Part shown: one piece after another, positions 8,411 through 31,826 of the stretch | Position numbering within the stretch: the stretch's first letter is position 1 | Layout: each line of letters opens with the position of its first letter | From: a virus | IMG/VR virus record: IMGVR_UViG_3300045988_103843 | Location: 1-38,935 of that record | DNA: 38,935 nucleotides | Reading direction: 5' to 3' (one strand) | Made by a program: the position numbers and the translations under genes | The notes under the pieces: model-generated | What the model was told of the DNA's origin: nothing | Seen by the model: the letters and a program-made list of their open reading frames with translations, nothing else | Databases searched by the model: none

Positions 8411-10484
8411 ACGCGACTGCCTTCCTCGCCTTGCGCCCGAACTCCGATTCGCCCATGACAGGCGTGAACTCTGCAATGATGGCCGGCAAGTTCTCTGCCA
8501 GCCAGCTGATAACGGCAGATTCGCCACCGGCAATATTGTTGGTGCCGGGTATGGCGACATCTTGCGCCGTTGAAATCATACCGCGCATTGCGTTATCTGT
8601 AGACTGCAACAGCAAGTCGGCATCGTCGTCGACACCGAGCGCTGCGCCCTGCATCGTATACTGGCCGATCTTACGGAACACACGCGACGGCGATTTGATG
8701 CCGAGCAGGTTCTTGGCTGCGCTAATGGCATTGTCGACAGCACCTTTAACTGCACTGATCAGCTGATCGGCGGCACCGGTGACACCGTTCACCATACCCT
8801 GGATGATGTTCGAACCGATCGATGTCACTTGGCCAGGTATGGACGCGAGGCCGTTGATGAGGTTATTCGCGAACTGCGTGGCAGCGCTCGTGGCGTTGCT
8901 TGCGAACTGTGACACCCAGCCGATAACGGTCGAGATGACGCCAGAGAGCCAGGATGCCACGTTACCGGGCAGCGCCGACAGGAACCCGGCGATTCCAGAG
9001 ACAAACCGCGAACCGGCGTTTACAGCGTTCGCCGCCATGTTGGCGACCCATGCGGCGACATTCGCGATGACCGTCGACAGGAATGTCGCGATGTTGCCAG
9101 GCAGCTGCGCGAACCACTGTACCAATGCATTGATCGCGTTGGGCAGGTCAGTCGTGAAAAACTGTACGACGCCTGTCACGAAACCGCTGATGTCCTCATA
9201 CAACTGCTGGAAGCCTGTGATGACGAACGCGATGACCTCGACGATGGCCGAAAACACCTTGATGGCAGTACTGATCGCTGCGGCCAATGCTGTACCGATG
9301 AGGTCTGCGATGAACGTGAGCAAAGGCTGTGCGTACTCGATAGCACTGAAGAAATCATTGAAAGCCGGTGACAGCGTCTCGATTGCGGGGAGCACGAGGT
9401 CGTTGACGTTGTCGCTGAACGTCGTGACACCAGAGCTGATCGCGCTGAACACGCTGTCAGCTGCATCTGCTGCTGGTTTCAAATTGTCGTTGAATACGTC
9501 TGCGAACTTACCGAAGACTTTGTCTGCACCTGCGAATGCATCGTACAACGGCCCTTGCACCGCTTCAGGCAGGACGCCGATAAGCGAGGCGCGGAGGTAG
9601 CGGCCGACATTCGGAGCATATGCTGCAACCGTCTGGCCGAGAGTTTCCATGATCTGGCCGACCCTCGGGATGATGTTCTTACCCGCAGTGGCGACGGACT
9701 CGACGAGCTCGTCGGTCAAGTCTTGCATGTTGGCGTTCTCGTTACCGAGGCCTGCGACCCAGTTCTCCCATGCGGCCTTCGCCATGTTGACGGAGCCCTC
9801 GATGGTCGTCGCTGCCTCTTTTGCAGTCGTGCCGGTGATGCCCATCTCACCTTGCACGAGGTGGATGGCCTCGACGATGTCAGAATACGAATCGACCGAG
9901 AAATCACGCACTTCGCCCTGCGCTGCTGAGAGTTTCTCGGCGTCTGAGAGCAGGCGCTCCAATTCAGACTTTGTACCGCCGTAGCCGAGTTTCAGGCTGT
10001 CGAGCATCTCGTAGTTGCCGCGCGACAGCGACATGTATGCTTCCTGAACGGTCTCGAGCGATGTGCCCATCTTGTTGGCATTGTCGCTCATGTCCATGAT
10101 GGCAGTGTTGGCTGCGTCGGCTGCGGCCTCAGTATTGCCGCCGAGCGAGCTGATCAGCGCCGCTGCGAAGTTCGTCGAGATCTCCATGTAGCGGTTAGCT
10201 GAAACACCTGCCGTCTGGTAGGCATTTGCCGCATACTGCTGCATTTTGCCGGACGAGTCTTTAAACAGGGTGTCGATACCACCGACGAGCTGCTCGTAGT
10301 TCGAATATGCGTCGAGTGCAGTCTTACCGATGGCGACCGTCGCTGTACCCAATGCGGCGACAGCGGCACCGCCGACTTTCGCAGCGGTGCCCAATGTGTT
10401 CTTGATGCCGTCACCGATCTTGCCGACCTCGCCTGATGCCTGGTCGTCACATGTGATCTTGACGGCGAGGTCGAGTAGATTCAT
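8403..10484 (-). CDS. Tape measure protein
   Basis: 693 aa, A/G/I-rich helical protein with multiple hydrophobic segments. Lies directly after the G/GT chaperone pair. Confidence 0.9.
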   Translation of the reverse strand: MNLLDLAVKITCDDQASGEVGKIGDGIKNTLGTAAKVGGAAVAALGTATVAIGKTALDAYSNYEQLVGGIDTLFKDSSGKMQQYAANAYQTAGVSANRYMEISTNFAAALISSLGGNTEAAADAANTAIMDMSDNANKMGTSLETVQEAYMSLSRGNYEMLDSLKLGYGGTKSELERLLSDAEKLSAAQGEVRDFSVDSYSDIVEAIHLVQGEMGITGTTAKEAATTIEGSVNMAKAAWENWVAGLGNENANMQDLTDELVESVATAGKNIIPRVGQIMETLGQTVAAYAPNVGRYLRASLIGVLPEAVQGPLYDAFAGADKVFGKFADVFNDNLKPAADAADSVFSAISSGVTTFSDNVNDLVLPAIETLSPAFNDFFSAIEYAQPLLTFIADLIGTALAAAISTAIKVFSAIVEVIAFVITGFQQLYEDISGFVTGVVQFFTTDLPNAINALVQWFAQLPGNIATFLSTVIANVAAWVANMAANAVNAGSRFVSGIAGFLSALPGNVASWLSGVISTVIGWVSQFASNATSAATQFANNLINGLASIPGQVTSIGSNIIQGMVNGVTGAADQLISAVKGAVDNAISAAKNLLGIKSPSRVFRKIGQYTMQGAALGVDDDADLLLQSTDNAMRGMISTAQDVAIPGTNNIAGGESAVISWLAENLPAIIAEFTPVMGESEFGRKARKAVAYA

Positions 10485-19223: not shown

Positions 19224-20497
19224 AATGCGAACCTCCTAGGCTCCCCGTTCTCGCCGCCGAAGAACGGCGACTCGTATACCATATCCCTCGGCCGGTACAC
19301 GCGTTTCGTCCTCACGAAATACCTCAGTGCATCCATGCCGTGGTCGTCGACCTTGACCGGCTTGTCTTGGTCTGCCTTATCATCCCATACATAGCCGGTG
19401 AACTCGCGCGCCAATTCTGTGAGCGTGTCGCCGATTTTGACCTGTCCCAACTGCATTGCGCTCGCGGTGTCGCGCACGCCGTCACCGACATCGTTGTCGG
19501 CCTTCCTCACTTTGAACCCGCCGCGCCTGCGCAGCTGCGCGATAAACGACGACGCGCTGGGGTCGACTATGATCTCGACGTCTGCTTCTTCCGGGGCGTC
19601 GTTCGTGAACACAACCAGGTCGTCGACATAATCGGGGTCGGTCTTCTGCCTGCCTTCCTCGCGTCCCGAGTAGCGGTACTCGCCGACCGCATGCCACGTG
19701 CCAGACGCATCGAGCATCCACTTGATCGCATGGAGCGGGTTCTGCGTTCCGTAGTCGACGCTCACGCAGTAGCCGCGTACGTCTTCCGGCTTCTCAGGTG
19801 ACCATGTCGGTTCCTGCGCATCCTTCCAGTTCGGGTACACGAGGCCCTCGGCCTTCGCCCATAGGCCCCTGATGTATCGGTCGTAGTACACGGTGCCTCG
19901 GTACTCGGCCTTGAGGCCTTCGACATAGGCACGTGGCAGGAACGGGTTGTCGTCGATCGTGTACCTCTGCACGAACATGTCGATACCGGGGTCTGCCTCA
20001 CCCTTATCGATGAACTGCTTGAGCCAATGGGTCGGTCCCGCCGGGTTGCATGCGCCGTGGCACTCGCTGTACGGCAAAGAGAGTCGGCTCTTCAGCATCT
20101 CGAACACGTCGGGGTGGATGTCGCAGATCTCGTCGCAGTAGGCGAACTTGACCTCCGCGCCGCGCAGCTTCGATACCTGGCCTGCGTTCTCGGCGCCGAT
20201 GCAGTACACGCGCTCGCCGAAGACCTCGCACCAGTTGCGGGCGTTGATGTCGCCGACGAACTTATCGCCCCACATGTCACGCATAGGCGTGAGCACGTTT
20301 CGCTCGATATTCTCCTTGGTCGCGCCCAAGATCAGCGCCAGGCCCTTCTTGCCGCGCAGTTTGATCAGCCTGTCGGGGATCGTGTACTGCACGGCCAGGT
20401 GGCTCTTGCCCGAGCGCACGGCACCGGTCGCGAGGTTCCACCTATGGTGCGCCTCGCGTACGTATTCCGCCTGCTTAGGCGTCAGGTGCACCTCCAT
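19220..20497 (-). CDS. terL: Terminase large subunit
   Basis: The ATG at 20497 (MEVHLTPKQAEY...). Walker A GAVRSGKS, Walker B-like YCDEI, nuclease half with D-rich motifs. Confidence 0.9.
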   Translation of the reverse strand: MEVHLTPKQAEYVREAHHRWNLATGAVRSGKSHLAVQYTIPDRLIKLRGKKGLALILGATKENIERNVLTPMRDMWGDKFVGDINARNWCEVFGERVYCIGAENAGQVSKLRGAEVKFAYCDEICDIHPDVFEMLKSRLSLPYSECHGACNPAGPTHWLKQFIDKGEADPGIDMFVQRYTIDDNPFLPRAYVEGLKAEYRGTVYYDRYIRGLWAKAEGLVYPNWKDAQEPTWSPEKPEDVRGYCVSVDYGTQNPLHAIKWMLDASGTWHAVGEYRYSGREEGRQKTDPDYVDDLVVFTNDAPEEADVEIIVDPSASSFIAQLRRRGGFKVRKADNDVGDGVRDTASAMQLGQVKIGDTLTELAREFTGYVWDDKADQDKPVKVDDHGMDALRYFVRTKRVYRPRDMVYESPFFGGENGEPRRFAL

Positions 20498-20975
20498 CTG
20501 CCACCTCCTCGATCTGCACGAGCACGTTCTTGACGTCGATGATGTCGCCGTCGTCCGCAGGCAGCTGCGGCTGCATCGAGCGCCAGGCGTCACCGCGGCG
20601 GTTGAACAGCCACATGGCGATTGCCTTCACGTCTGCCGGCACGTGCTTCTTGACCTTCTTGGTCAATACCTCCATGCCCGTGTCGGGGTCACGTGACCAG
20701 GTCTCTTCGAAGTAGTCATACCCGAGCGCTCGCCGGAGCAGGGCGCCCTCGACCTGACCGTCTACGAGGTCCTCGGTGACGGTGAGCGCCTTGTCCAGCT
20801 CGGGCGACTGCTGGCGCCACTTCAAGAGCGTCGTGTGCGCGACGCCGATCTTGTCCTCGGCGATCGCCTTCACGGAGAGGCCTCGACGCCTCCAGTCGTT
20901 GATCAGCTCGATGCCGTCCTCGCCGAGCCAATAGCGCTTGCGCTGCACCGCGTTGTTGAATTTGATATACGGCAT
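20475..20975 (-). CDS. terS: Terminase small subunit (HTH-containing)
   Basis: 166 aa directly upstream of, and overlapping, terL. HTH-like LSVKAIAEDKIGVAHTTLLKW. Confidence 0.75.
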   Translation of the reverse strand: MPYIKFNNAVQRKRYWLGEDGIELINDWRRRGLSVKAIAEDKIGVAHTTLLKWRQQSPELDKALTVTEDLVDGQVEGALLRRALGYDYFEETWSRDPDTGMEVLTKKVKKHVPADVKAIAMWLFNRRGDAWRSMQPQLPADDGDIIDVKNVLVQIEEVADGGAPDA

Positions 20976-21003
20976 TTGCCTCCACTCCTTCTACATCGAA
21001 ATA

Positions 21004-21032
21004 TATTATACGACGCCTGCAGCGGGCATTCG
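21004..21032 (-). promoter_or_regulatory. Candidate late promoter (TCGAAT-N17-TATAAT) upstream of terS
   Basis: On the minus strand, TATAAT (plus 21004-21009) lies about 28 nt upstream of the terS ATG and is followed by GGAGTGGAGG. The -35 element is weak. Confidence 0.4.
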
Positions 21033-21046
21033 AGTGTGCGCTCTGC

Positions 21047-21138
21047 CGTGTATACTGTGCATACTGTGTATATGCGGTATGCACAGTCAGGGCTCGGTCG
21101 GCGTTTCGATTTTTGCGACTGTGTATACTGTGTATACC
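21047..21138. repeat. TGTATACTGTG-type short repeats (two clusters) upstream of terS
   Basis: gtgtatactgtgcatactgtgtata at 21047-21072 and tgtgtatactgtgtatac at 21119-21136. Confidence 0.7.
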
Positions 21139-21194
21139 CACCAGCATCGAATTGAAACGCCCCTATATGTTCACCGACGTCAACATACACGCCG

Positions 21195-21611
21195 TCAACT
21201 GCCTGTCACACTGCTGTCAAACACCTGTCACACCGCTTTTTTCGATTTATCTGCACCGTGTGACAGGTAGTCTCGACAAAACGCGACGTAGATGCACGTA
21301 TTTGCAACTACCTGTCACACTGTCACACTGACATGCTCCCCTATACCCCGATATTTTGAGAATAATATATTTATCATTTGATGAATATACCTATAGAAAA
21401 TATCTAATATAGGGCCGGCCTGCTGTTTGCCAGTGTGACACTTGGGTACCCAACAATTTACCTACGTCGCGTTTTGATGCCTACTACCTGTCACACTGGC
21501 CCGAAAACAGTGTGACAGCATGTGTGACAGTAACTCACGCAAAACACCGCCACACATGCCATCACGTCGCGTTTCGCCACTTACTACCTGTCAACCACGC
21601 AGATAAATCGG
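21195..21611. promoter_or_regulatory. Non-coding regulatory hub A: array of ACCTGTCACACTG and AAACGCGACGTAG motifs around an inverted repeat with a 39-nt AT-rich spacer
   Basis: At least 9 exact TGTCACAC/GTGTGACA sites in both orientations. Tandem site at 21309-21330. IR arms at 21338-21357 and 21397-21414. Outer IR cgatttatctgc (21242-21253) / gcagataaatcg (21600-21611). Collinear with 37613-37915. Confidence 0.8.
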
Positions 21612-21638
21612 AAAGTGCCAATTTCGGCCCTCAGGCAT

Positions 21639-21675
21639 GAAAAACGGCCCCGAGGCTCATATCCGCCTCGGGGCC
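21639..21675 (-). terminator. Rho-independent terminator ending the early/accessory operons
   Basis: Perfect 11-bp GC-rich stem ggccccgaggc / gcctcggggcc with an 8-nt loop, followed on the minus strand by GTTTTTC. Lies about 80 nt downstream of the stop at 21755. Confidence 0.8.
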
Positions 21676-21754
21676 CTGCAAGTATACGCGCCAACGCAAA
21701 ACTGCGCCTTCTACGTATGCTACAATCATTTTTAGATATGTTTCTGCGCTGCCC

Positions 21755-22030
21755 TCACTCCTCAAAATCGGCGCAGCAGTCGCTGTCGTCCACTATCGCG
21801 TCCTCGACCGCGGCCAGGATGTACCTGGGCGTCCAACGCTGCGTGCCCTTGAGCTCTGCGAGCGCGCCTTTCAACTTGAGCTCGCATACATGGCAGTCGA
21901 GCTCGTCCGATTCGATGCAATGGCGGCATTCACTGCAGTAGCGGCGCTCGCCGCCGTAAGCGCGGTCGATGTCGTCGTCGAAGCAACCAGGCGGCAGGTT
22001 GTAGCCGCAATCGGGCTCGTAATCAGGCAT
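21755..22030 (-). CDS. Small acidic Cys-rich protein (last gene before the late region)
   Basis: 91 aa with 8 Cys, including CSECRHC and CHVC. Confidence 0.65.
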   Translation of the reverse strand: MPDYEPDCGYNLPPGCFDDDIDRAYGGERRYCSECRHCIESDELDCHVCELKLKGALAELKGTQRWTPRYILAAVEDAIVDDSDCCADFEE

Positions 22031-22307
22031 TTCTCAGGTCCTCCCCACACCACGGGCAATACCGCGGTATCGTCTCGAACTCGGTCCAACTCGTAATATA
22101 CGTATCGTCGTGCTCGTAATGCACGACGCCGAATACGAGGTCGCACCTAGGGCAATGGACGGCGTCGACTGGGTCGACGTCATCTATCGCGACTACCTGG
22201 TCAGTGTACACCAACTTGCGCGGCTTCCACTTCTGAAACGATGGTGTCGCCCCGCACGTCGGGCAGTCGCACGGCCTCGCGAACTTAATCCTGCGCCCCA
22301 TCTTCAA
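22023..22307 (-). CDS. Zinc-ribbon protein
   Basis: 94 aa with CDCPTC...CPRC...CPWC pairs. Overlaps both neighbouring genes. Confidence 0.65.
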   Translation of the reverse strand: MKMGRRIKFARPCDCPTCGATPSFQKWKPRKLVYTDQVVAIDDVDPVDAVHCPRCDLVFGVVHYEHDDTYITSWTEFETIPRYCPWCGEDLRNA

Positions 22308-22638
22308 TCACCTCCGCCCCGCAATGTGGGCAACGCTCATATTTGCCGTAGATCTCCTCACAAGACCTGCCGCACTTGCTGCATTCGTAGATCCTCACTT
22401 CGACGTTCCCATGGGTCTCGACGGCCGTGAGCTCGAGGCGACACGTCGGACGGTCGATCAGGTCTGCGAGTTCTTCCCAACGAGTTGTACAGCCGCCTTC
22501 GAGTTGGCATAGCGCTTGTGTATCGCTGAACAACCTCAGGCTGAGCTCCTGGCACTCATCGCACTGGTCGAATCCATTGCAGTCGCAGCGTGTACGCAAT
22601 TCCTCGGCTATCTCACGGTACTCTTCGTCTGTGATCAT
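22285..22638 (-). CDS. Cys-rich zinc-ribbon-like protein
   Basis: 117 aa with CDC...CDEC and C-terminal CSKC...CPHC. Confidence 0.65.
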   Translation of the reverse strand: MITDEEYREIAEELRTRCDCNGFDQCDECQELSLRLFSDTQALCQLEGGCTTRWEELADLIDRPTCRLELTAVETHGNVEVRIYECSKCGRSCEEIYGKYERCPHCGAEVIEDGAQD

Positions 22639-23033
22639 TTACCGTCACCCCTCAGTTTGTGGATACGCGATGCGATGTCCGTACACATGTTAACCGTGCA
22701 ATCACCTACATAGAGCTTGCAGTCGACACACCGTTTCCCGATATTGCGAGCGTATGCGCATGCGGGGTCGTTGCAATCGGGGGAATCTTCGTAAGTCTCG
22801 ACCGCATGCAGGTCCTCGTCCAGCTTCTCCCAACTGTCGGGCCCGTCTAGATACATATCGCTGACGGCGAAATATGACGACATGCTGTGCGTGAACCTCA
22901 CTCTCCACGTATCGCTATTTGCGAAGTATGCGAACAGCCTCACGTCGTTCGCATTACCATACCTGTCATACAGCACTTTTGTATCTAGCGGGACCTCTCG
23001 CCCATCGGCGTCTTTTGGCGGCTCGATATTCAT
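22635..23033 (-). CDS. Hypothetical protein, paralog B of a tandem pair
   Basis: 132 aa. Shares PKDADGREVPLDTKVLYD, PDSWEKLDEDL and RIHKLRG with the upstream gene. Confidence 0.7.
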   Translation of the reverse strand: MNIEPPKDADGREVPLDTKVLYDRYGNANDVRLFAYFANSDTWRVRFTHSMSSYFAVSDMYLDGPDSWEKLDEDLHAVETYEDSPDCNDPACAYARNIGKRCVDCKLYVGDCTVNMCTDIASRIHKLRGDGK

Positions 23034-23425
23034 CGGTCTTCATCCTTCAGCTTATGGATGCGCTGTGCGACATGTTCTACCATTTGAACGAGGCATTCTT
23101 TATTCAGGTCGGCACGGCACTTTTCGCAAGCGTCGTCTGCGGGGTCAAAATATTCACAGGGCGCGTAACGAGTTGAGGCAACACACCTGTCCAAGTCCTC
23201 TGCCAACTTCTCCCAACTATCAGGTGGTGTGAGGTAATAGTCCTGCGGATAATACTTTACGCCGGACGTATCGAACAAAAACTGCACTCTCCATTGATTG
23301 CACAGTTTTTGAGATATATATTCCCACGCATAAATGACCAACGACTTACCGTTCTTGTCGTACAGCACATTAGTGTCTAATGGAATCTCGCGGCCCTCGG
23401 CATCCTTGGGCAATTCGATAGCCAT
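23030..23425 (-). CDS. Hypothetical protein, paralog A of a tandem pair
   Basis: The ATG at 23425 (MAIELPKDAEGREIPLDTNVLYD...) follows GGAGGA. The longer track ORF (to 23560) would overlap the MazG-like gene with an R-rich N-terminus. Confidence 0.7.
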   Translation of the reverse strand: MAIELPKDAEGREIPLDTNVLYDKNGKSLVIYAWEYISQKLCNQWRVQFLFDTSGVKYYPQDYYLTPPDSWEKLAEDLDRCVASTRYAPCEYFDPADDACEKCRADLNKECLVQMVEHVAQRIHKLKDEDR

Positions 23426-23439
23426 TTCTTCCTCCATCC

Positions 23440-23742
23440 TCAGAGCCTGCCTCGGCCCTCGTTCCTCTCGTCCATGCGCATGATTGCAGCATCGACTTCG
23501 CCTTGCGTGGCACCGACGGCCGCCAATACGTTCGCCACGGCCTGCACTGTGTCCAGGCACTCGTCGATGAGCTCCTCGCGGAACACCTTACGCATCGCCT
23601 CGGGCGCGTACTGCATGTTGTCGTACTTCTGCCAAGCGCCGTAGATCTCAGCCGCCTCCTCCAGTGGCTTGAGCACCTGCGGCTTCGCGTCCTCGACCTT
23701 GCGGAACACCCGCATGTTCAATAGGTAACCGTCGATCATCAT
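23440..23742 (-). CDS. MazG-like all-alpha NTP pyrophosphohydrolase (copy 1)
   Basis: 100 aa. EEAAE (ExxE) ... ELID (ExxD) metal-binding pattern about 25 residues apart. C-terminal RNEGRGR. Confidence 0.65.
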   Translation of the reverse strand: MMIDGYLLNMRVFRKVEDAKPQVLKPLEEAAEIYGAWQKYDNMQYAPEAMRKVFREELIDECLDTVQAVANVLAAVGATQGEVDAAIMRMDERNEGRGRL

Positions 23743-23756
23743 TTACCACTACCTCC

Positions 23757-24584
23757 CTAGATACATTGCTCGATAACTGCCTTGCCGCGCAGCTGGCCGA
23801 CCCACTTCGGAGGGATGGCCTCGAAACCGTAATATGTGCCGGCTAGCGCTCCGGCCACTGCCGCCGTGGTGTCTGTGTCGTCGCCGAGCTCGACTGCCTT
23901 GAGCACACAGTCTTCGTATGAGTGCGTGTTCAGGAAACACCACAGCGCCGCCTCGAGTGTGTGCTCGCAGTATCCATCGCTTTTGACGGCGCCGACAGGC
24001 CTCGATGCGATGTGCCCGTACCTGCGCCAGAGGTCGACTTTAGCCGGCGTGCCGACGTTTCGGATGGTCCGCAGCATGTCGCACAACGCGACGCATGACC
24101 ACTCGGCCACGGGGTGCGCATGGGTGATTGCTGAGACCTCGCGTATATGGTAGGGTTCAGCGTAGTCGATCATGGCGAGCGGCGCCGTCCTCATGAGCGA
24201 CCCGTTGCCGCACCCGTCATATGACTTCGCGGGCACGCCCGTCGTGATCGCCTTCCGGCACGTCATGCCGGTGTCGAAAACACGCCCGTCGCACGTGAAC
24301 TCACCGTCCTGCAGCCATCGGTGGAACCTGTCTGCGATGTCCGCAAAATCGATATATGCGCGATGCTTGATACTCGAGCAGATGCACAGGGCCATCGACG
24401 TGTCATCGGACCACGTACCGGCTGGCTGCCCATGAGCGCCGCCATCTACCATGCCGGTGCAATCGAACGTACCACGCTCGCAAAACTCATACGGCACGCC
24501 CAAGGCGTCACCGACTGCGAGCCCGTATATACACGAGCGCATGCGGTCCCTGTCATAATGCACGCAGTTATGCGTGGTCGACAT
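23757..24584 (-). CDS. ADP-ribosylglycohydrolase (ARH/DraG family)
   Basis: GLAVGDALG, GTWSDDTSM, GNGSLMR and LGDDTDTTAAVAGALAG. The full set of binuclear-metal motifs is present. Confidence 0.88.
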   Translation of the reverse strand: MSTTHNCVHYDRDRMRSCIYGLAVGDALGVPYEFCERGTFDCTGMVDGGAHGQPAGTWSDDTSMALCICSSIKHRAYIDFADIADRFHRWLQDGEFTCDGRVFDTGMTCRKAITTGVPAKSYDGCGNGSLMRTAPLAMIDYAEPYHIREVSAITHAHPVAEWSCVALCDMLRTIRNVGTPAKVDLWRRYGHIASRPVGAVKSDGYCEHTLEAALWCFLNTHSYEDCVLKAVELGDDTDTTAAVAGALAGTYYGFEAIPPKWVGQLRGKAVIEQCI

Positions 24585-24762
24585 AGCGCACCTCCCTCGC
24601 CTCGAACTCGCCGACCGTGCCGTCGGGGAACTCGACGAGCCCGACGGGCTTCTGGTTGTTCCCGAGGAAACCGCCTCGCTGGAACCACCCGATCAAGTCG
24701 CCGTAGCGGCCGTGTACGGCGACCGGCCGCGACTCCATGGATACGACCACTTGCACCTGCAT
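24568..24762 (-). CDS. Small hypothetical protein (64 aa)
   Basis: The internal ATG at 24762 forms a TGATG junction with the stop of the upstream MazG-like gene. MQVQVVVSMESRPVAVHGRYGDLIGW... Confidence 0.55.
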   Translation of the reverse strand: MQVQVVVSMESRPVAVHGRYGDLIGWFQRGGFLGNNQKPVGLVEFPDGTVGEFEAREVRYVDHA

Positions 24763-25112
24763 CAGTACCTGCCTTTCATGTTGTTGCGCTTCTCGCAACG
24801 CCTCATCAACTCCGACATGTCGTCGACACCGACTGCCGCGACGCAGTTGACGACCGCTTGGATCACGTCGGCCGCCTTGTCGAGCATCTTGTCGCGTGCC
24901 TTCGCCGAATACCGCTGGTTGCCGCGGCGCTGCACCCAGAACTGCCACGCGGTGAACAGCTCTGCCGCCTCCTCGAGCGGCTTCGTGAATTGCGGCTTGT
25001 CGTCTGCGTAGACGTATTTGAAATGCCTCACTTCACCGATCAGCACTTCCTGCCTCCCATCCCCCATGTCGAACACCGACACGGGCACTGATTTCGTGGG
25101 GTCACCGTGCAT
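24762..25112 (-). CDS. MazG-like all-alpha NTP pyrophosphohydrolase (copy 2, divergent second motif)
   Basis: The ATG at 25112. Shares KPLEEAAE.....AWQ with copy 1. The second motif is DKAAD instead of ExxD. Confidence 0.55.
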   Translation of the reverse strand: MHGDPTKSVPVSVFDMGDGRQEVLIGEVRHFKYVYADDKPQFTKPLEEAAELFTAWQFWVQRRGNQRYSAKARDKMLDKAADVIQAVVNCVAAVGVDDMSELMRRCEKRNNMKGRY

Positions 25113-25128
25113 AATGACGACACCCACC

Positions 25129-25362
25129 TCATCGGTCCTTGATCGCATATTCGACGGCCATGCCGAGCACAGGCAAAAACAGGAAAGCATACTCGCCGCC
25201 TACGGCGAAATAGCCCCTGTCTGCGAACGCATAGGCCGCGGCGACGGCCGTGGCCACGATACCGACGACCGTCAGGGCCGTATAGACAAAATCACGTATG
25301 GTTAGTCCTCCATTCGTTGGAAAGTATCGCAGTCGGCGCTGATGGCACGTGCGCGGATGCAC
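25129..25362 (-). CDS. Small membrane protein (start uncertain)
   Basis: Two hydrophobic segments (FVYTALTVVGIVATAVAAAYAF; YAFLFLPVLGMAV). The ATG at 25362 would overlap the upstream gene by 61 nt. Confidence 0.5.
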   Translation of the reverse strand: MHPRTCHQRRLRYFPTNGGLTIRDFVYTALTVVGIVATAVAAAYAFADRGYFAVGGEYAFLFLPVLGMAVEYAIKDR

Positions 25363-25586
25363 GCCTCATCGCACGTGCGCGCCATGACACGGATGTCGGG
25401 GCCGTCTAGGCGCCCGGCACGCCACGGCACGAACGGCATGCCGTAATTGATAATGCATGCCTTCCAACCGCACTCGCGGTAACGATTCGCGGTGTCCATG
25501 GCCGCGTCGAACTCCCATTCCGGGATGTCAAACGGCTCGGCTTCCTCGTCTGCCGGCGGCATGACGAAAACGATATACTCAGGCAT
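25302..25586 (-). CDS. Hypothetical protein, first gene of an accessory operon
   Basis: 94 aa. RBS AAGGAGGAA 4 nt before the ATG. Confidence 0.65.
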   Translation of the reverse strand: MPEYIVFVMPPADEEAEPFDIPEWEFDAAMDTANRYRECGWKACIINYGMPFVPWRAGRLDGPDIRVMARTCDEACIRARAISADCDTFQRMED

Positions 25587-25600
25587 TTGTTCCTCCTTTT

Positions 25601-25668
25601 GGTTGACAGGGCCATTATACTACTTTCGCGCATCGACATTTCGATAAATTGAAATTATTTTCGAAATG
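25601..25668 (-). promoter_or_regulatory. Promoter/leader cassette: TATAAT-N6-GTCAACCA-N3-GGAGGA-ATG with an upstream palindrome
   Basis: Minus-strand TATAAT (plus 25614-25619). CATTTCGA-N16-TCGAAATG palindrome at 25637-25668. The leader is about 85% identical by eye to 27324-27360. Confidence 0.55.
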
Positions 25669-25713
25669 CTTTAACGAACGGCGGGCGACAGAACTGCCAC
25701 CCACCTATGGCAT

Positions 25714-26526
25714 TTACTCCTCAGTGTGGTCGAGGTCGACGACCACCTCGCCGACGACTTCCCCGTCGACCTCGACCTCGGCGCCCTCGTGCCGCAGGCG
25801 CTTTTCGACTTCGGCCATGAACTCGGCGGCCTTCTCGGCGTATACCCCTACAGTGGGCTCGCCTGCGAACAGGCGCTCGTCATAGCAGCGCTGTGCACGG
25901 CGGTTGCCGATCTTGAACAGGTATTCGAATACGAGCTCCGCCGTGCCGGCCATGTACAGGTCTCCGGTGAATACGATCTCACGCTTGTCGACTTCCATAC
26001 GGACGCCGAAGAAAGCCGACACGGCATCGGCCAGGTCATAACGCCAGTGCTTGCGGCTGCCGACAGTCGTGCGCTCGGAGCGGGTGCCCTCGTCGCCGTT
26101 GGCGGCCCTGGCCTCGCGTGCGGCGTCATACACCTGCACTGCCTTGTCGATCAGCTGGAACTCGTCGACGCCCTTCGTGCGGCGGTCACAGAGGTTGGCG
26201 GCGATGGCCTGGCGGAAGCCCGCATAGTCCTCGGGCTCGCCCTCGATGATCACGTCGCCGGTCTCGCCGTACTTGAATTTCCCGCCGTCGCCTTCGGGCT
26301 CACCCTCGGCCTTGGTGAGGTCGATGTGCACGACCTGGTCGGCGAGGCAGAACATGTGGCGGAAGTCCTTGGCGACAGTGAGGTCGTCGCCCTTCTTGGC
26401 GATGACGCCCTTGCGGTAGAGCGACGGGAAGGGGTTCGCCGGCATCTCGACCAGCACGCCCTTCTTGTCGATCGCGCATTCGTTGATGAAACCGAGCTCT
26501 TTCTCAGTGAACGTTACCTCTGCCAT
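25714..26526 (-). CDS. Hypothetical acidic protein (270 aa)
   Basis: Long ORF with an RBS (GGAAAGGAAA) and an acidic EVEVDGEVVGEVVVDLDHTEE tail. No motif I can assign. Confidence 0.7.
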   Translation of the reverse strand: MAEVTFTEKELGFINECAIDKKGVLVEMPANPFPSLYRKGVIAKKGDDLTVAKDFRHMFCLADQVVHIDLTKAEGEPEGDGGKFKYGETGDVIIEGEPEDYAGFRQAIAANLCDRRTKGVDEFQLIDKAVQVYDAAREARAANGDEGTRSERTTVGSRKHWRYDLADAVSAFFGVRMEVDKREIVFTGDLYMAGTAELVFEYLFKIGNRRAQRCYDERLFAGEPTVGVYAEKAAEFMAEVEKRLRHEGAEVEVDGEVVGEVVVDLDHTEE

Positions 26527-26554
26527 GGTGTTTCCTTTCCCCTTCGTGGGCTAA

Positions 26555-26779
26555 TTACCAAACTTTCTGCTCGCCTGTGTAGGTATCGATGATTGTCGAC
26601 TTGCCGCCTTTAGGCAATGCACGCTGTGCTTGCCTGCAGCGCTTCCAGAACTCCAAATAACCTGGGCCGAAGCAAACGTCGACCTCGTCGATAGATTCCA
26701 GCGCGTCCTCTTCGGCCGTGCTCTCGAGGTAGTAGATACACTCGCCGCCGAGTACGTATGAATAGCAGTATCTCGCCAT
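26555..26779 (-). CDS. Small Cys-containing hypothetical protein (74 aa)
   Basis: The ATG at 26779 is preceded by AGGAGG. The upstream part of the 232-aa track ORF is an R/S/P-rich shadow of the 26790-27119 and 27135-27323 genes. Confidence 0.6.
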   Translation of the reverse strand: MARYCYSYVLGGECIYYLESTAEEDALESIDEVDVCFGPGYLEFWKRCRQAQRALPKGGKSTIIDTYTGEQKVW

Positions 26780-26789
26780 TTGTACCCTC

Positions 26790-27119
26790 CTAACCCAGTG
26801 CGTGGATCTGCTCGAATGTGGACCTAATTGTGATTTCACGACCGCGCTCGAGCAGTTGAATGGCACACTCTGGGTTGGGCGCATACAGCTCGAGGAACTC
26901 GCAAATAGAGTCGTGGTCGAACAGAATGCCGTCGCAGAAGCCTGCGGCGATATGCAGAATATCGCAGTGGCTGAGGCTCTTGGCGGTCTCGGTGATGGCG
27001 GAAATATCCACCGACTGCCCGCCGCATATGGTAGGCCTGACCGTGATGACGTAGTAATGCGGCGCGTCGGGGTCTTCGAAATCCCACTCTTTGACATACG
27101 TGCAGTACAGGGTGGCCAT
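26790..27119 (-). CDS. Hypothetical protein (109 aa)
   Basis: Coding-like composition, compact spacing with its neighbours. Confidence 0.65.
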   Translation of the reverse strand: MATLYCTYVKEWDFEDPDAPHYYVITVRPTICGGQSVDISAITETAKSLSHCDILHIAAGFCDGILFDHDSICEFLELYAPNPECAIQLLERGREITIRSTFEQIHALG

Positions 27120-27134
27120 GATGGCTCCTTTCGT

Positions 27135-27323
27135 TTAGTGGATGAGCATCTCGATGCGGTCGAGTGCGGCCTCGATGGAACCGAACACGCCGCGGAACGA
27201 CTCGAGGCCGAAATCGGGGTCGATCTCGGCGAGGAACATATCACCACTGGCATTGTCGCGGCTGATAACGAACGTGCGGTCGATACCGAACTGGTCTTGC
27301 TTGGTGATCTTGATGGGCTTCAT
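27135..27323 (-). CDS. Small hypothetical protein (62 aa), first gene of an operon
   Basis: The ATG at 27323 (MKPIKITKQ...) follows GGAGGAGCAAA. Confidence 0.6.
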   Translation of the reverse strand: MKPIKITKQDQFGIDRTFVISRDNASGDMFLAEIDPDFGLESFRGVFGSIEAALDRIEMLIH

Positions 27324-27338
27324 TTTGCTCCTCCTTCT

Positions 27339-27384
27339 GGTTGACAAGGTCATTATCCCATAACTCGGCGTGTAGGCACATACC
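27339..27384 (-). promoter_or_regulatory. Promoter/leader cassette: TGgGATAAT-N6-GTCAACCA-N3-GGAGGA-ATG
   Basis: Minus-strand extended -10 tgggataat (plus 27352-27360). Same architecture as 25601-25619. Confidence 0.5.
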
Positions 27385-27430
27385 TAATTTTAAATAAATC
27401 AAAAATAATTTCGATCAATTTGAAATTAAG

Positions 27431-27484
27431 TATGTACTTTCAGGTAGCTACCGGGTAATATAATTTTGTCAACCACGAGGAAGG
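27431..27484 (+). promoter_or_regulatory. Divergent promoter/leader for the only plus-strand gene: TAATAT-N6-GTCAACCA-N3-GGAAGG
   Basis: TAATAT at 27456-27461, GTCAACCA at 27468-27475, RBS at 27479-27484, ATG at 27493. AT-rich upstream region. Confidence 0.5.
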
Positions 27485-27492
27485 GAAACACC

Positions 27493-27738
27493 ATGATTAA
27501 GACTTTCGATGATGCCATCAAGCTCGAGCGCGTCCAGTACAAGCAGCCGTTCAATGAGGCATATGAGATCACCAACTACGACCGTCGCGTGAAGATCGTC
27601 CTTGATAACTACTGTGTGCACTATGTCCGCTTCAAAGCCGCCAACCGCGGCCAGTGGAAGTCGATGGGCCGCAAGGAGTTCGAGACCGCGAATAAGCAGC
27701 TTTGCATCAAAAACGCCCTCAAGTGGGTCAATGCATAA
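27493..27738 (+). CDS. Hypothetical 81-aa basic protein; the only convincing plus-strand gene
   Basis: MIKTFDDAIKLERVQYKQPF... It has its own RBS and promoter-like elements and is followed by two hairpins. Visibly less GC-rich than its neighbours. Confidence 0.7.
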   Translation: MIKTFDDAIKLERVQYKQPFNEAYEITNYDRRVKIVLDNYCVHYVRFKAANRGQWKSMGRKEFETANKQLCIKNALKWVNA

Positions 27739-27760
27739 CTGCATTACGTGTGATAAAATA

Positions 27761-27792
27761 GGAGGTGCGGTTTTGGGCCACCGCACCTTCCT
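27761..27792 (+). terminator. Hairpin 1 downstream of the plus-strand gene
   Basis: ggaggtgcggtt-ttgggc-caccgcaccttcc followed by tctttc. Confidence 0.55.
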
Positions 27793-27803
27793 CTTTCGGG
27801 TAG

Positions 27804-27849
27804 GGGAACACCCCAGATGCGATTGCGCGTCTGGGGTGTTCTTCTTTTT
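27804..27849. terminator. Bidirectional Rho-independent terminator between convergent genes
   Basis: gggaacaccccagatgcg / cgcgtctggggtgttc stem with one G-T pair. A T-run (ttcttttt) follows on the plus strand. On the minus strand the hairpin lies just after the dCMP deaminase stop. Confidence 0.7.
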
Positions 27850-28297
27850 ACTGTGCACTTGTGACGACTTCGACGCCTGCATTGCCTATCATGCGCATGC
27901 ACACCGGGCATGGCGATATGTCGCCGGCAGGGATGCGCTCGCCTGTCTCGAGGTCGACACCGGCCAAATACAGCGTGGCGCCGATCATCTCAGAGCGCGA
28001 GGCCGACAGCATCGCGTTCATCTCGGCGTGTACCGCCGGGCATGAGCCGTAATCACCGTCGTTATGCCCGTGGCCATGGCGGTGGCATATGCCCACATCC
28101 GTACAGTTGACGTCGCCGCGTGCGGCACCGTTGTAGCCGGTGGCGATGATCTCGTCGTTGGCCACAATCACGGCACCGTAGCGGCGGCGCAGGCACGTCG
28201 ACCTTGCCGCCACGGCTAACGCGATGTCGAGGTAGTACTCAGCTTTACTAGGCCTCGCCGGTCGATCCGAAAGCACCGTCGCCCCTCTCTTCGCCAA
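27848..28297 (-). CDS. dCMP deaminase (CMP/dCMP zinc deaminase family)
   Basis: HAEMNA and PCPVC zinc motifs; EYYLDIALAVAARSTC N-terminal helix. The likely true start is the GTG at 28276 (GAGAGGGG upstream) rather than the TTG at 28297. Confidence 0.88.
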   Translation of the reverse strand: MAKRGATVLSDRPARPSKAEYYLDIALAVAARSTCLRRRYGAVIVANDEIIATGYNGAARGDVNCTDVGICHRHGHGHNDGDYGSCPAVHAEMNAMLSASRSEMIGATLYLAGVDLETGERIPAGDISPCPVCMRMIGNAGVEVVTSAQ

Positions 28298-28667
28298 GCT
28301 GTTCGACGAAATCGGCCAACACGATCGGCATGACGACGAGCTGGCCGATACGGGTACCGCCCGGCACCTTCTTGAGTTTGTCGGTCAAGTTGGTGACGAT
28401 CGCGTGTACCTCGCCGGTGTAGCCGGAATCGATCGGCGGCAGCTCGCACACGAGGCCTTCGAGGCTCATGCCAGATCGCGGGAACACGCAGGCCATGACG
28501 CCGTCAGGCAGCTCGAGCGAGAAGCCCAACGGGATGCGGCGGGTCTCATGCGGCTTCAGGGTCTCACCGAAAGTGGTGTATACGTCTGCCCCGGCATCGT
28601 TGTAATGCGCACGCACCGGGAGCTTGACGTCTGAGGCCTCGCCGATACGGTTGATCTTAATCTTCAT
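28248..28667 (-). CDS. dut: Trimeric dUTPase-fold nucleotidohydrolase (dUTPase; dCTPase activity not excluded)
   Basis: AGADV, PRSG, IDSGYTGE, RIGQLV and RGDGAFGSTG, which are dUTPase motifs I-V. RBS GGAGGT. Confidence 0.88.
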   Translation of the reverse strand: MKIKINRIGEASDVKLPVRAHYNDAGADVYTTFGETLKPHETRRIPLGFSLELPDGVMACVFPRSGMSLEGLVCELPPIDSGYTGEVHAIVTNLTDKLKKVPGGTRIGQLVVMPIVLADFVEQLGEERGDGAFGSTGEA

Positions 28668-29475
28668 CCTTTACCTCCGTGATGATGGCGTTATTGAGAC
28701 AATATTCTGATACGGCAGGCCTCGGTGTGTCGGACGACATCGCGATGCGTTCGATCTCCGAGATATGGGCTAAAAACTTCTCGATGTCGAATTTGAGATG
28801 CGGTGCAGTATGCTTGCAGCACCAGACGCCACGGACGCGGTCGATGTCCTTAGTATATGCGTGAAGCGACACCGCGAAATGCGTGTACTTGCCGTATTCG
28901 ACGCCGAGTTCGTTCGCGATATGCTTCTGCAGCTCCGTGAAGAACACGACGTCATAAGGCGTGCCGAGCCACACGTCGTTGGAACGCATGATGCCGGTGC
29001 AATCGAGCTTGCCCTCGCGGAGCTCGAATACGAGGGCGATCGTGCAGATCTCGTCTTTCGTCTCGAAGCGCTTGGGGTTCGGCACGTTGAAATTGATGAC
29101 CGCACGACGCGAAGTCGGGTCGCGCTTAAGTGTGTCGATGACCTGCGCGACCTGGTCGAAGCCATAGCGGTTGAACACGATGGCGCCGTACGCCGATCGG
29201 TTCGTCGCGCCGTCATCGCTGATATGCTTCCAGAACGACGAAAACTTCGAGATGAACTCGACGTCGTCGCGGCCGGTGAAATACCATGCCAGCTCACCGA
29301 GCATATATGAAAGCGAGTAGCCGGTGCGTGCCGTCGCGATGTTGTCAGTGATGTCGAGCAGCGTGAAACCGCTATTGAGCAGTTCCTTTGTGCCGGCGAC
29401 CTCTTGGCCCTGTACTGAGATCTTGCCGCACAGTTGGCGGTAGATGTCGTTCATCGACTTGCCTACAACATGCAT
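28657..29475 (-). CDS. Thymidylate-synthase-fold deoxypyrimidylate hydroxymethylase/methylase, T4 gp42 (dCMP hydroxymethylase)-like with an Asp specificity residue
   Basis: GELAWYF (catalytic Glu), DPTSRRAV, DEICTIALVF (nucleophile Cys) and MRSNDVWLGTPYD. Aligned by eye with E. coli ThyA QRSCDVFLGLPFN and T4 gp42 MRSNDVVFGFRND, Asp replaces the ThyA Asn177. RBS AAGGAGG. Confidence 0.8.
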   Translation of the reverse strand: MHVVGKSMNDIYRQLCGKISVQGQEVAGTKELLNSGFTLLDITDNIATARTGYSLSYMLGELAWYFTGRDDVEFISKFSSFWKHISDDGATNRSAYGAIVFNRYGFDQVAQVIDTLKRDPTSRRAVINFNVPNPKRFETKDEICTIALVFELREGKLDCTGIMRSNDVWLGTPYDVVFFTELQKHIANELGVEYGKYTHFAVSLHAYTKDIDRVRGVWCCKHTAPHLKFDIEKFLAHISEIERIAMSSDTPRPAVSEYCLNNAIITEVKDED

Positions 29476-29939
29476 TTCAAAACCTCCTTAATACACCAAT
29501 CGACGTCATTGTCGTCCAAAGTGATCACACTGCTATTTGCGGCGGCGAACTCCTCGTAACGACGATAAATGAGCCCGATACTATCGGTGATGACGTCGCC
29601 GAACTCGTCGCCACGTAGTGTGAGGCGCCGCACCACCTCAGCGAGCGGCGGTAACACGATGACGATCGGGATGCCTAAGACAGAACACATGTAAGTCAGT
29701 TTCTCACAAGCATCGTTGTCGATACGTTGGGTGCGGCCAAATATATCGGCGTAAATTTGTTCGCTGATCCAGCAGCGGTCGATCACGACGCCGTCACATG
29801 CGAGCTTCTGCATGTACTCGGTGGCCGACTGTCCGCCGTTGCACGTCATCTTCAAGATGTTCATGTCGAGTTTATCGGCGAGCGCCTTCGCAAGCGTGGA
29901 CTTGCCGGCACCGTCAGGGCCTTCGATGATGATAGGCAT
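29463..29939 (-). CDS. Thymidylate-kinase-like dNMP kinase (short form)
   Basis: P-loop IIIEGPDGAGKST and a Tmk-like DRCWISEQIY (DRxxxSxxxY) motif. 158 aa. RBS GAAGGAG. Confidence 0.75.
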   Translation of the reverse strand: MPIIIEGPDGAGKSTLAKALADKLDMNILKMTCNGGQSATEYMQKLACDGVVIDRCWISEQIYADIFGRTQRIDNDACEKLTYMCSVLGIPIVIVLPPLAEVVRRLTLRGDEFGDVITDSIGLIYRRYEEFAAANSSVITLDDNDVDWCIKEVLKCML

Positions 29940-29942
29940 GGT

Positions 29943-31826
29943 TTACTCCTTCGTGAAAACACGTACACGTTTGCCGTTGACACGGCAGGTCTTACTTGCC
30001 AGGCCGTAGTGTTTATTGGCCTGGCGTGTGAATTCGTTTTGGCCGAGCGGCTTCAGGTTGTTCCTGATCGCCCAGGCCATATAGTAGTCGTACACTAACG
30101 CCGTCGACTCGTTCACCACCTCGTCGACAGGCGTGTCCTCGAAGTAGCCGAGGACGGGGTTGTTGGCGACGTTGTAGTCTTCGATCTCCTTGACGACGAC
30201 ATCTGGCATCGTAAACGAGCGGTTTGCCAAAACCCGCTCAAGTCCCTTGAGGCCGATGTTGATCAGGTGGCTCATGACCTCAGGCGAGTGGAGCTTGTAC
30301 TTGATGTACGGGTCGAAATCTGGGTCGTCTTTCGAAAACGTCGCCTTGAACGGCACGAGTACGATGCGGTCGAGCACAGCACCGGTCTTGTCCCTGATGC
30401 GCGGCATGGAATTCGCCGAGAACAGCAGCTTGGCATAACTGGCGAAGTCAAACGGGTCTTGGCCCTTACGCTCGGCGTTGACGCGGTCACCGCTTACGAG
30501 CTTCTTGAAAATAGCCGGGTTTGCGATGAACTCGTCGCCGATGTCGTCGCCGATGTTGGCCAACTTCCCAAACAGCTCCGCCGTCTTGAACCGCTCGCCG
30601 AGCTCCGCCAGGTCGAGTGCCGATGTATTGCCGTCACCGAGTAATGTCTTGAGCATGTCGAGGTACGTCGACTTGCCGTTCGCCTTGTCGCCGATCAGGA
30701 TGAAACTCTTGCGGAGCTCGTTACGCCTATAGAACAGGTAGCCGATAACCTCCTCCAGCAGGGCGTAGATACCGTCGTCATTGCAGGCGAGGCGACGCAG
30801 TGTCTTGTCGGTGAACTCCGACCAAATCGTCGGGTCGTACTCCCATGGGATGCGGTTCGTGATCACGAACTCCGGAGAGAACGGCTCAAGCTCGCCGGTC
30901 TTGATGTCGTACACACCGTTGGCGAACGCGATGTAATCGGCATCGGCCGCAGGTGCGTCATCTTGGATGAGCACGTCAAGGTAGTTGAGTACCTCGGTGC
31001 GCTTGGCCTTCGACAGCATCGGCAGGTGCCTGATCATCGCGTTCTCGATGAGGAGGTTGCCGGACACATAGACACCGTCACGGTATATATGGAGCTGCCG
31101 GCCGATCTTGACGATACGGTGTTCGTTCTTGAGGTACTCCGCGAACTTGTCGAATAGGAACGTGCCCTTGTTGTAGAACACATCTTCGGCAAATGCATCG
31201 TCGCGGTAGACGACATCGAGCTCCTGCTGCTCCATGGGCTTGTCGAACATATAGCGATTGATCACCGCCAACGTCTCGCGCGCCTCGTCTTTCGTGAAAC
31301 CCTCCGACTGCAGTGTCAAGATGTAGTTGAATAACGCCTGGTTGCGGCCGTCACCCTCTTCCATCTCGTCGAAGTCTGGCACATACTTCACCGGCCTCAG
31401 CCAGCACGGCAGCTCGTCGTAATCCTCGTCCGGCTCGATATCGTAGATCACATCGCGCTCGTGGCCGTCGACTTTCAGGCTGCCGTATGTGGCTTTCGAC
31501 CCGACTTTGATGTCGGCGTCGATGCCGATCGCCAGGCGTGCGTGTGTCTTGCATTTCATACCACGGGGGTAGCCGACGAAATAGAAATGCTTGCCGCGGG
31601 TCGTGGCGACGACCTTGCACGCGATCTGCTCGGCCTCGACGATGTCCATCAACTTCTCACTCTGTGCCATGTCGTCGATGTCGACGAAAATCGTCTCAGG
31701 CGCGAGCACACCACCGTAGCCGTCGAGTTTACGCGCCTGCGCCAGTGTGAGGTACTGGCCGTCTTTCAGCTTCTGTGCGCACTTCTTGCCGTTGAGTTTC
31801 ACATAGCCCATAAATAGGCGGTCCAT
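29943..31826 (-). CDS. Primase-helicase (Prim-Pol-like N-terminus, D5_N, P4-type SF3 helicase C-terminus)
   Basis: FVDIDD...ATTRGKHFYF. Walker A ILIGDKANGKST. The ATG at 31826 forms an ATGA overlap with the polymerase stop. Confidence 0.85.
   Translation of the reverse strand: MDRLFMGYVKLNGKKCAQKLKDGQYLTLAQARKLDGYGGVLAPETIFVDIDDMAQSEKLMDIVEAEQIACKVVATTRGKHFYFVGYPRGMKCKTHARLAIGIDADIKVGSKATYGSLKVDGHERDVIYDIEPDEDYDELPCWLRPVKYVPDFDEMEEGDGRNQALFNYILTLQSEGFTKDEARETLAVINRYMFDKPMEQQELDVVYRDDAFAEDVFYNKGTFLFDKFAEYLKNEHRIVKIGRQLHIYRDGVYVSGNLLIENAMIRHLPMLSKAKRTEVLNYLDVLIQDDAPAADADYIAFANGVYDIKTGELEPFSPEFVITNRIPWEYDPTIWSEFTDKTLRRLACNDDGIYALLEEVIGYLFYRRNELRKSFILIGDKANGKSTYLDMLKTLLGDGNTSALDLAELGERFKTAELFGKLANIGDDIGDEFIANPAIFKKLVSGDRVNAERKGQDPFDFASYAKLLFSANSMPRIRDKTGAVLDRIVLVPFKATFSKDDPDFDPYIKYKLHSPEVMSHLINIGLKGLERVLANRSFTMPDVVVKEIEDYNVANNPVLGYFEDTPVDEVVNESTALVYDYYMAWAIRNNLKPLGQNEFTRQANKHYGLASKTCRVNGKRVRVFTKE

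Follow-up and report, generated by a model that had tools for sequence, protein, structure and literature searches.

Why would a phage whose head protein carries an ADP-ribosyltransferase (ART) also encode an enzyme of the family that takes ADP-ribose off again? The question is raised by the IMG/VR virus record IMGVR_UViG_3300045988_103843, analyzed here over its positions 1 to 38,935 (the window, 38,935 nucleotides), which has a MuF-fused ART among its head genes and an ADP-ribosylhydrolase (ARH) gene at 23757–24584. The original prediction, made from the letters of the sequence, took this ARH to be a candidate eraser or immunity partner of the virion ART, or else an anti-defense enzyme. We propose that it is an active mono-ADP-ribosyl-arginine hydrolase and acts as a non-essential, second-layer eraser in a three-part MuF-ART toxin module, and we put the probability of this reading at roughly 0.6.

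The hydrolase and its fold

The open reading frame (ORF), the family match and all of the motifs claimed for this gene were confirmed. Its product matches Pfam PF03747 (ADP_ribosyl_GH) with 203.3 bits (cut-off 26.2, E = 8e-60, model positions 2–286 of 287) and PHROG 6572, ‘ADP-ribosylglycohydrolase’, with 204 bits, and it contains GDALG (residues 25–29), WSDDTSM (58–64), GNGSLMR (126–132) and GDDTDTTAAVAGALAG (234–249). The catalytic residues of DraG are E28, D60 and D97 (PMC8120803); allowing for a SEQRES offset of +5, they align to E33, D60 and D104 of the window ARH. Across 68 diverse ARH homologues, D26, E33, S59-D60-D61, D104, N127-G128, H155 and D236-T237-D238-T239 are invariant. The earlier description of the enzyme as apparently catalytically intact is upheld by this conserved triad and by the metal motifs, the judgment resting on sequence and a moderate AlphaFold2 model. 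With a pairwise dN/dS of 0.11–0.14 (20 orthologues), the gene is under purifying selection.

Among solved structures, the best full-length sequence match is Listeria Lmo0067 (8za7, E = 1.5e-40, 32% identity); the Thermus ARH (2cwc), Serratia Tri1 (6dre, E = 9e-37) and DraG (2woc, E = 1e-28) also match over their full length. The AlphaFold2 model, built from a shallow alignment, is all-helical (pLDDT 71.7, pTM 0.80) with two loop regions of low confidence, and its top Foldseek neighbors are Tri1 (TM 0.71–0.72), Lmo0067 and DraG, all at TM 0.68–0.72 with a probability of 1.00. By sequence and model, membership in the DraG/Tri1-type ADP-ribosylhydrolases, with their all-alpha ARH fold, is confirmed. 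The alignment to Tri1 runs from residue 12 of the window ARH and residue 69 of Tri1, and just 11 residues precede the core. Because the N-terminal extension of about 60 residues with which Tri1 occludes its toxin is missing, the window ARH appears to be of the purely enzymatic type, like the Bacteroides hydrolase BAH discussed below.

Association with MuF-fused transferases

The virion ART of the original prediction is real. It is a PF03496 domain fused to MuF (PF04233) and is the only ART of the window; its R (WLVRG), S-T (FVSTG) and ExE (QESEMILQRG) motifs are intact in the alignment of homologues. The ExE form goes with arginine-specific transferases, which fits an eraser of the DraG/Tri1 type. 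Searched against PDB sequences, the ART domain had no match at E ≤ 0.01. One ARH-positive sibling (L016, contig 091576; labels with L denote loci) has KxE in place of ExE (SKFEMILQRG), which may alter or lower the activity of its ART.

Genome-wide, ARH and MuF-ART occur together, and the comparison gives strong support to a partnership across lineages. About 26 distant loci anchored on the ART had enough flank to be evaluated (at least about 7 kb on the upstream and 1.4 kb on the downstream side), and 23 of them carry an ARH: nine adjacent to the ART (+229 to +440 nt) and 14 located 5.6–7.9 kb upstream, before the terminase. When the ARTs were de-replicated at ≥70% identity, 12 of the 16 resulting clusters had an ARH (adjacent only in eight, upstream only in three, including that of the window, and both in one), and it was absent from one evaluable cluster. 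Five of the 12 positive clusters are known solely from loci anchored on the ARH, so the ART-anchored count is the unbiased estimate. Among viral loci anchored on the ARH (45–51% identity), the gene directly follows MuF-ART in 31 of 56, and representative loci have the order MuF-ART, small Cys ORF, ARH, which matches the order Bxa, Bsi, BAH. As background, homologues of the window ARH were found by tblastn in 38 of 50,697 deposited phage records, and the domain has been described as rare in viruses (Iyer et al. 2022). The separation of ART and ARH into different modules had been thought unusual, but it is recurrent, because at least four ART clusters and the 14 upstream loci share it.

The gene next to the ART is another one, a small ORF with four cysteines that lies 8 nt past the MuF-ART stop (Table 1). 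In the distant loci anchored on the ART, it comes after the ART in 57 of 57. Within the window's own group of phages, all ART-positive genomes have it and those with an HExxH domain at the MuF C-terminus lack it. With this complete co-occurrence, and swapped together with the ART as it is, its behavior is that of the cassette's cognate immunity gene; none of the ART-positive genomes has lost it, and for this ART family it is the obligate partner. Most likely the protein is Bsi-like and would block the active site of the ART, a role suggested by covariation and by its position, which is that of Bsi between Bxa and BAH. The view that the ARH protects the phage from its own ART thus gains from the link across lineages, but the place of the primary immunity partner most likely goes to the four-Cys protein. 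Pfam has no family for the latter, nor for the ORFs flanking the ARH. The four-Cys family, with lengths of 64–102 amino acids, a CxxC...C...C pattern and C-terminal [FY]Y-x-[KE]E, has further members at L026 9754-9984, L037 9757-9993, L049 9682-9990 and L069 9552-9746.

The MuF C-terminus is polymorphic in the own group, in which TerL and portal are >90% identical: it carries the ART, a domain of about 240 residues with an HExxH motif, or nothing. Two genomes have in-frame deletions of the ART domain. In one (L023, 8672-9426) the last ART residues (…EWTGSKDKYK) and an orphan four-Cys ORF are retained; in the other (L011, 19040-19774) MuF and the four-Cys ORF form an in-frame fusion. The HExxH domain (HHIMHEFAHAY) replaces the whole ART and Cys cassette in L003, L004, L008, L021, L108 and L109 (L003 18301-19020) and in L012 (17259-17976), where it is split from MuF. 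It matches no Pfam family and has no small ORF downstream, and it is a putative alternative MuF toxin of metallopeptidase type.

The arrangement is of an already known kind and matches the experimentally characterized Bxa/Bsi/BAH module of a Bacteroides stercoris prophage (Alexei et al. 2024, PMC11699363). There, Bsi binds Bxa, with occlusion of the active site modeled by AlphaFold 3 and backed by mutagenesis, and BAH, an enzyme of the ARH family with a catalytic Glu, removes the ADP-ribosylation made by Bxa and does not bind the toxin (PMC11699363). Judged from sequence alone, the window phage shares with it the head protein with a MuF-fused C-terminal ART, the small downstream ORF, the ARH with a conserved catalytic Glu and a MuF C-terminus that is polymorphic across relatives; two-layer neutralization is proposed for it by analogy. 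Unlike BAH, which is adjacent to its toxin, the window ARH lies 6.0 kb upstream of muF, beyond the terminase and a terminator-like hairpin, and not in the head-morphogenesis region. The window phage also differs in its actinobacterial host (Collinsella), in that no integrase was found and in that its ARH is dispensable in natural variants.

Several other pairs resemble this one in part. Tre1/Tri1 of the Serratia proteamaculans type VI secretion system (6dre/6drh) likewise joins an R-S-E ART to a DraG-like ARH that reverses arginine ADP-ribosylation, but the window ARH lies away from the toxin gene and outside any type VI secretion context. Lmo0066/Lmo0067 of Listeria monocytogenes (8za7) also uses an ARH as immunity to an ART effector, Lmo0067 being known by its PDB title alone, but in the setting of a bacterial secreted effector and not a phage head protein. 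With DraG of the DraT/DraG nitrogenase switch the window ARH shares the hydrolase fold and the E-D-D (+Mn) residues, and a specificity for arginine-linked ADP-ribose would be expected; the annotated ORFs of the window include no DraT homologue, nitrogenase or PII gene, and its ART is of the PF03496 Alt/VIP2 type. The logic of Apk2/Aph1/Tis1 is the same (a MuF-delivered enzyme toxin, a small active-site blocker and a hydrolase that reverses the product), with synthesis and hydrolysis of the alarmone (p)ppApp in place of ADP-ribosylation (PMC11699363; PMC10083569). MuF polymorphic toxins (Jamet 2017) and MuF-fused Alt/VIP2 ARTs (Iyer 2022) have both been described.

We propose that the module works as follows. 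The MuF-ART, a minor head protein, would be packaged as an R-S-ExE transferase and presumably ejected with the DNA. The four-Cys protein, made alongside the toxin from the late operon, would bind and block the ART stoichiometrically, as Bsi does. The ARH would hydrolyze the N-glycosidic arginine-ADP-ribose bonds set on cellular or phage proteins by ART that escaped the block, and it could also clear marks of the ART injected at the start of infection. The transcription unit from which the ARH appears to be made comes ahead of the packaging genes, so that the eraser would already be in place when synthesis of the toxin begins. From these arrangements we infer both the timing of expression and the MuF-ART as the source of the erased marks. 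Of the two layers, the four-Cys protein would be obligate and the ARH non-essential.

Loss, retention and rival explanations

Loci of the window's own group were combined per contig, which gave 18 ART-positive and 9 ART-less genomes. The ARH is intact in 14 of the former and lost or disrupted in four: in L148 the gene is cleanly missing, in L150 residues 40–249 are deleted internally, in L128 there is a frameshift, and in L143 the gene is cut short and fused to what is left of a methyltransferase. All four keep a full-length MuF-ART, intact R/S-T/ExE motifs and the four-Cys ORF. The ARH is dispensable, because it was lost from 4 of 18 genomes with an intact ART, and the dispensability fits a two-layer system since these genomes keep both the ART motifs and the Cys ORF. 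We ruled out that the loss is offset by inactivation of the ART, given the intact motifs and ORFs in all four genomes, and also that the gene was deleted by recombination between its flanking paralogues, as L148 retains both of them and the small upstream ORF. Among the ART-less genomes the ARH is intact in 6–7 and lost or disrupted in 2–3, including L019 (nonsense codon at position 53) and L126 (DxDT motif lost); that of L017 is without just its last 10 residues.

The stretch between ARH and terminase is a hotspot of accessory-gene turnover whose content varies between siblings. In the L143 fusion (8070-8591, contig 039244), ARH codons 1–31 run on into what remains of the C-terminal part of a C5 DNA methyltransferase (RRLTPRECERLQGFPDDW…GNSMAVPV).

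Several results weigh against an eraser dedicated to the phage's own ART. Within the own group the presence of an intact ARH is independent of the ART (14/18 vs 6/9, Fisher p = 0.65), and in the ART-less genomes the gene evolves with the same dN/dS (omega about 0.11). The co-occurrence of the two genes, which stands across lineages, therefore does not extend to the own group, where ARH homologues do in part occur independently of the ART and four ART-positive genomes have dropped theirs. By sequence, the window ARH is closest to orphan ARHs on Collinsella chromosomes (54–57% identity), not to the cassette-adjacent phage ARHs (45–51%), and in no bootstrap replicate does it join the cassette clade; that it does not nest among the cassette-adjacent ARHs is a robust result of the sequence comparison, and given both observations it may have been recruited independently. 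The structural model is only moderate (pLDDT 71.7), and arginine-linked ADP-ribose is a presumed substrate, the sequence itself being uncertain between arginine, serine and nucleic acid targets. Possible reasons for the retention of the ARH by ART-less siblings are recent cassette swapping, orphan immunity against co-infecting siblings and a second substrate.

Immunity at the level of the population would account for much of this. The ARH would then guard the infected cell and the resident phage against the ART of co-infecting siblings or against other ART toxins, which would explain why it stays intact and constrained in 6–7 of the nine ART-less genomes. The polymorphism of MuF C-termini within one group, about two thirds of which carries the ART, makes mixed infections with ART-positive siblings plausible; polymorphic toxin systems typically include orphan immunity genes (PMC11699363), and the Cys ORF is likewise kept after deletion of the ART (L023, L011). 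However, recent cassette swaps and recombination can explain the retention equally well, and the loss of the ARH from four ART-positive genomes is left unexplained; we regard this explanation as unlikely. No more credible to us is an anti-defense role, in which the ARH would strip ADP-ribose set by an ART-based defense of the host, much as AdfN acts against DarTG1. Phage orphan erasers have a precedent in AdfN (PMC11825919), a phage enzyme that removes ADP-ribose and is related to bacterial antitoxins and immunity proteins; it differs in its NADAR fold, its DNA-guanine ADP-ribose substrate and the lack of a cognate toxin, whereas the window phage has its own ART. An eraser without a cognate transferase is thus not what the window phage has, but it is what its ART-less siblings have that keep the ARH. 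Further support comes from the position of the ARH, ahead of the packaging genes in a hotspot of accessory genes to which the methyltransferase remnant of one relative also belongs, from its independence of the ART in the own group, and from 25 of 56 ARH-bearing viral contigs that have no detectable ART within 10 kb. Against this stand the strong co-occurrence with MuF-ART across lineages and the closest characterized relatives, which act on arginine-ADP-ribosylated proteins in toxin–immunity pairs and not on DNA (PMC8120803). An ART-based defense system was not identified in Collinsella here, and a PADLOC scan gave no match for the ARH, to a defense family or otherwise, nor for the MuF-ART. 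The anti-defense alternative of the original prediction thus found no positive evidence in this analysis.

Very improbable, in our view, is a soluble substrate linked to the nucleotide genes, such as O-acetyl-ADP-ribose, alpha-NAD or a signaling form of ADP-ribose. ARH3 does hydrolyze O-acetyl-ADP-ribose and alpha-NAD (PMC9503650), and nucleotide-metabolism genes form a module about 3 kb upstream of the ARH. However, the two are not adjacent and are separated by a terminator-like hairpin; the match to ARH3 is confined to the last ~45 residues of the window ARH (E ~1e-11), in contrast to the full-length matches to DraG/Tri1-type enzymes, and Iyer et al. have argued that viral ARG domains prefer macromolecular adducts.

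The chromosomal relatives of the window ARH suggest a wider setting. The Collinsella genomes sampled carry an orphan ARH (L157-L235, e.g. L206 8861-10765), and no ART, MuF, portal or terminase was found within 10 kb of the 79 chromosomal loci. Of 72 species that could be evaluated, 41 have it 66–76 bp downstream of a YhcG/DUF1016 nuclease of the PD-(D/E)XK type, which matches the PADLOC candidate defense family PDC-S02 (494 bits). Iyer et al. (2022) predicted host ARG-centered systems that counter viral ARTs, and the pairing in Collinsella fits that prediction. A neighbor-joining tree placed the phage ARH with the host clade, with a bootstrap of 12/100, and the commonest sister of the window ARH in the bootstraps was that of an unrelated ART-less viral contig (57/100). 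The identity values and the tree suggested capture of the phage gene from the Collinsella chromosome, but at this bootstrap support we do not claim it. It is conceivable, although we think it improbable, that the ARH is the ‘off’ half of a write-then-erase program or part of a population-level arms race, the host ARH being a counter-measure and a possible source of the phage copy. The virion-injected MuF-ART would then mark Collinsella proteins at entry, and the ARH made before packaging would reset these marks or counter the ART of siblings. If true, erasers of ADP-ribose would be a three-way currency among the phage, its sibling phages and the host. The eraser of a three-part toxin module remains the reading that we prefer.

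Genome context, host and significance

The first ~55 bases of the window recur at its end; the window is therefore a complete, circularly closed genome of about 38.9 kb. Nearly all genes lie on the minus strand, and from high to low coordinates they are ordered as replication (SNF2 helicase, PD-(D/E)XK+AAA_24, DUF669, D5 primase-helicase), nucleotide metabolism, the accessory cluster with the ARH, a strong terminator-like hairpin, packaging and head genes (terminase, SPP1-type portal, MuF-ART, HK97-gp10-like protein, scaffold, SU10-type capsid protein) and a block of tail genes, collagen-like fibers and an amidase endolysin. The nucleotide-metabolism block could supply dTMP or serve a modified-pyrimidine pathway. 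No integrase or recombinase was detected in this complete genome (1-38935). MuF toxins have been reported only in temperate phages (Jamet et al. 2017); the window genome has a MuF toxin and no detectable integrase or recombinase.

The early accessory operon of the original prediction is plausible insofar as the hairpin at 21675..21646 parts the ARH-containing cluster from the terminase and late genes; the timing comes from gene order only. The promoter-like site listed in Table 1 is possibly the start of an accessory transcription unit of about 5.4 kb that contains the ARH. It adjoins, on the downstream side, the hairpin pair at 27763-27845, which may act as a terminator in both directions where the nucleotide-metabolism genes meet the accessory cluster. 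The 56-aa ORF upstream of the ARH is kept in relatives, even where the ARH is cleanly absent. A MazG-like identity for the 100- and 142-aa paralogues flanking the ARH was considered and dropped, as no Pfam or PHROG match supports it.

Table 1. Positions of the ARH, the MuF-ART and neighboring features in the window
Feature	Position	Strand	Remarks
Four-Cys ORF, 77 aa	14880..15113	-	CxxC...C...C, C-terminal FY-x-EE; 8 nt past MuF-ART stop
Alt/VIP2-type ART domain	~15122-15934	-	C-terminal, ~residues 600-870 of MuF-ART; motifs R, S-T, ExE
MuF-ART minor head protein, 870 aa	15122..17734	-	PF04233 Phage_Mu_F, residues 332-449; PF03496 ADPrib_exo_Tox, residues 637-843
Intrinsic-terminator-like hairpin	21646..21675	-	11-bp stem, 10 G-C pairs, T-run; by consensus scan only
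Tandem duplicate small genes	22635-23033; 23030-23425	-	No Pfam/PHROG match; copy number differs among siblings
Paralogous small-gene pair flanking ARH	23440-23742; 24762-25190	-	37-40% identity; no Pfam/PHROG match
ARH gene, 275 aa	23757..24584	-	ATG start; DraG/Tri1-type ADP-ribosyl(arginine)hydrolase by profile, motifs and fold model
ARH catalytic/metal residues, codons	E33 24488-24486; D60/D61 24407-24402; D104 24275-24273; D236/D238/T239 23879-23868	-	By alignment
56-aa ORF	24568..24738	-	No assigned function; stop overlaps ARH start by 17 nt
Shine-Dalgarno GGGAGG	24591..24596	-	6-nt spacer to ARH ATG; read from sequence
Promoter-like site	27387..27414	-	Weak: consensus match count not above shuffled expectation
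Hairpin pair	27763-27845	+ and -	20-bp-stem plus-strand hairpin overlapping minus-strand terminator-like hairpin
Nucleotide-metabolism block	27848-29939	-	dCMP deaminase, dUTPase, thymidylate-synthase-family protein, dNMP-kinase-like P-loop protein

A megablast search of window positions 20000-30000 against deposited phages matched nothing, so there is no annotated close relative among them. The phage is nevertheless a common one, because more than 120 protein clusters with 78–91% identity to the window ARH occur on metagenomic contigs of 35–40 kb. Sequence comparison places its relatives in Collinsella (Coriobacteriaceae). In a scan of species-representative genomes, one ARH match, at 81%, came from a contig of 36.6 kb in the bin of a Collinsella metagenome-assembled genome. 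At least 591 matches in that scan encode ARH relatives, and among the best 80 of them, 79 have 53–57% identity and are nearly all titled Collinsella or Coriobacteriaceae.

What is new here is mainly descriptive: a Collinsella phage with no detectable integrase, the ubiquity of the four-Cys ORF, the frequent upstream position of the ARH and its natural dispensability. Current understanding is not overturned by these findings. In the metagenomic population, natural knockouts are available at 80–95% identity (ARH-less, ART-less, orphan-Cys and toxin-swapped) and would permit clean tests of the module layer by layer.

In summary, these findings carry the module of MuF-ART, blocking immunity protein and ARH eraser, defined by experiment in Bacteroides prophages, over to an abundant gut phage of Collinsella that is apparently without an integrase. 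Within it, the ARH is a frequent yet dispensable second layer, often encoded upstream of the packaging genes and not beside the toxin.

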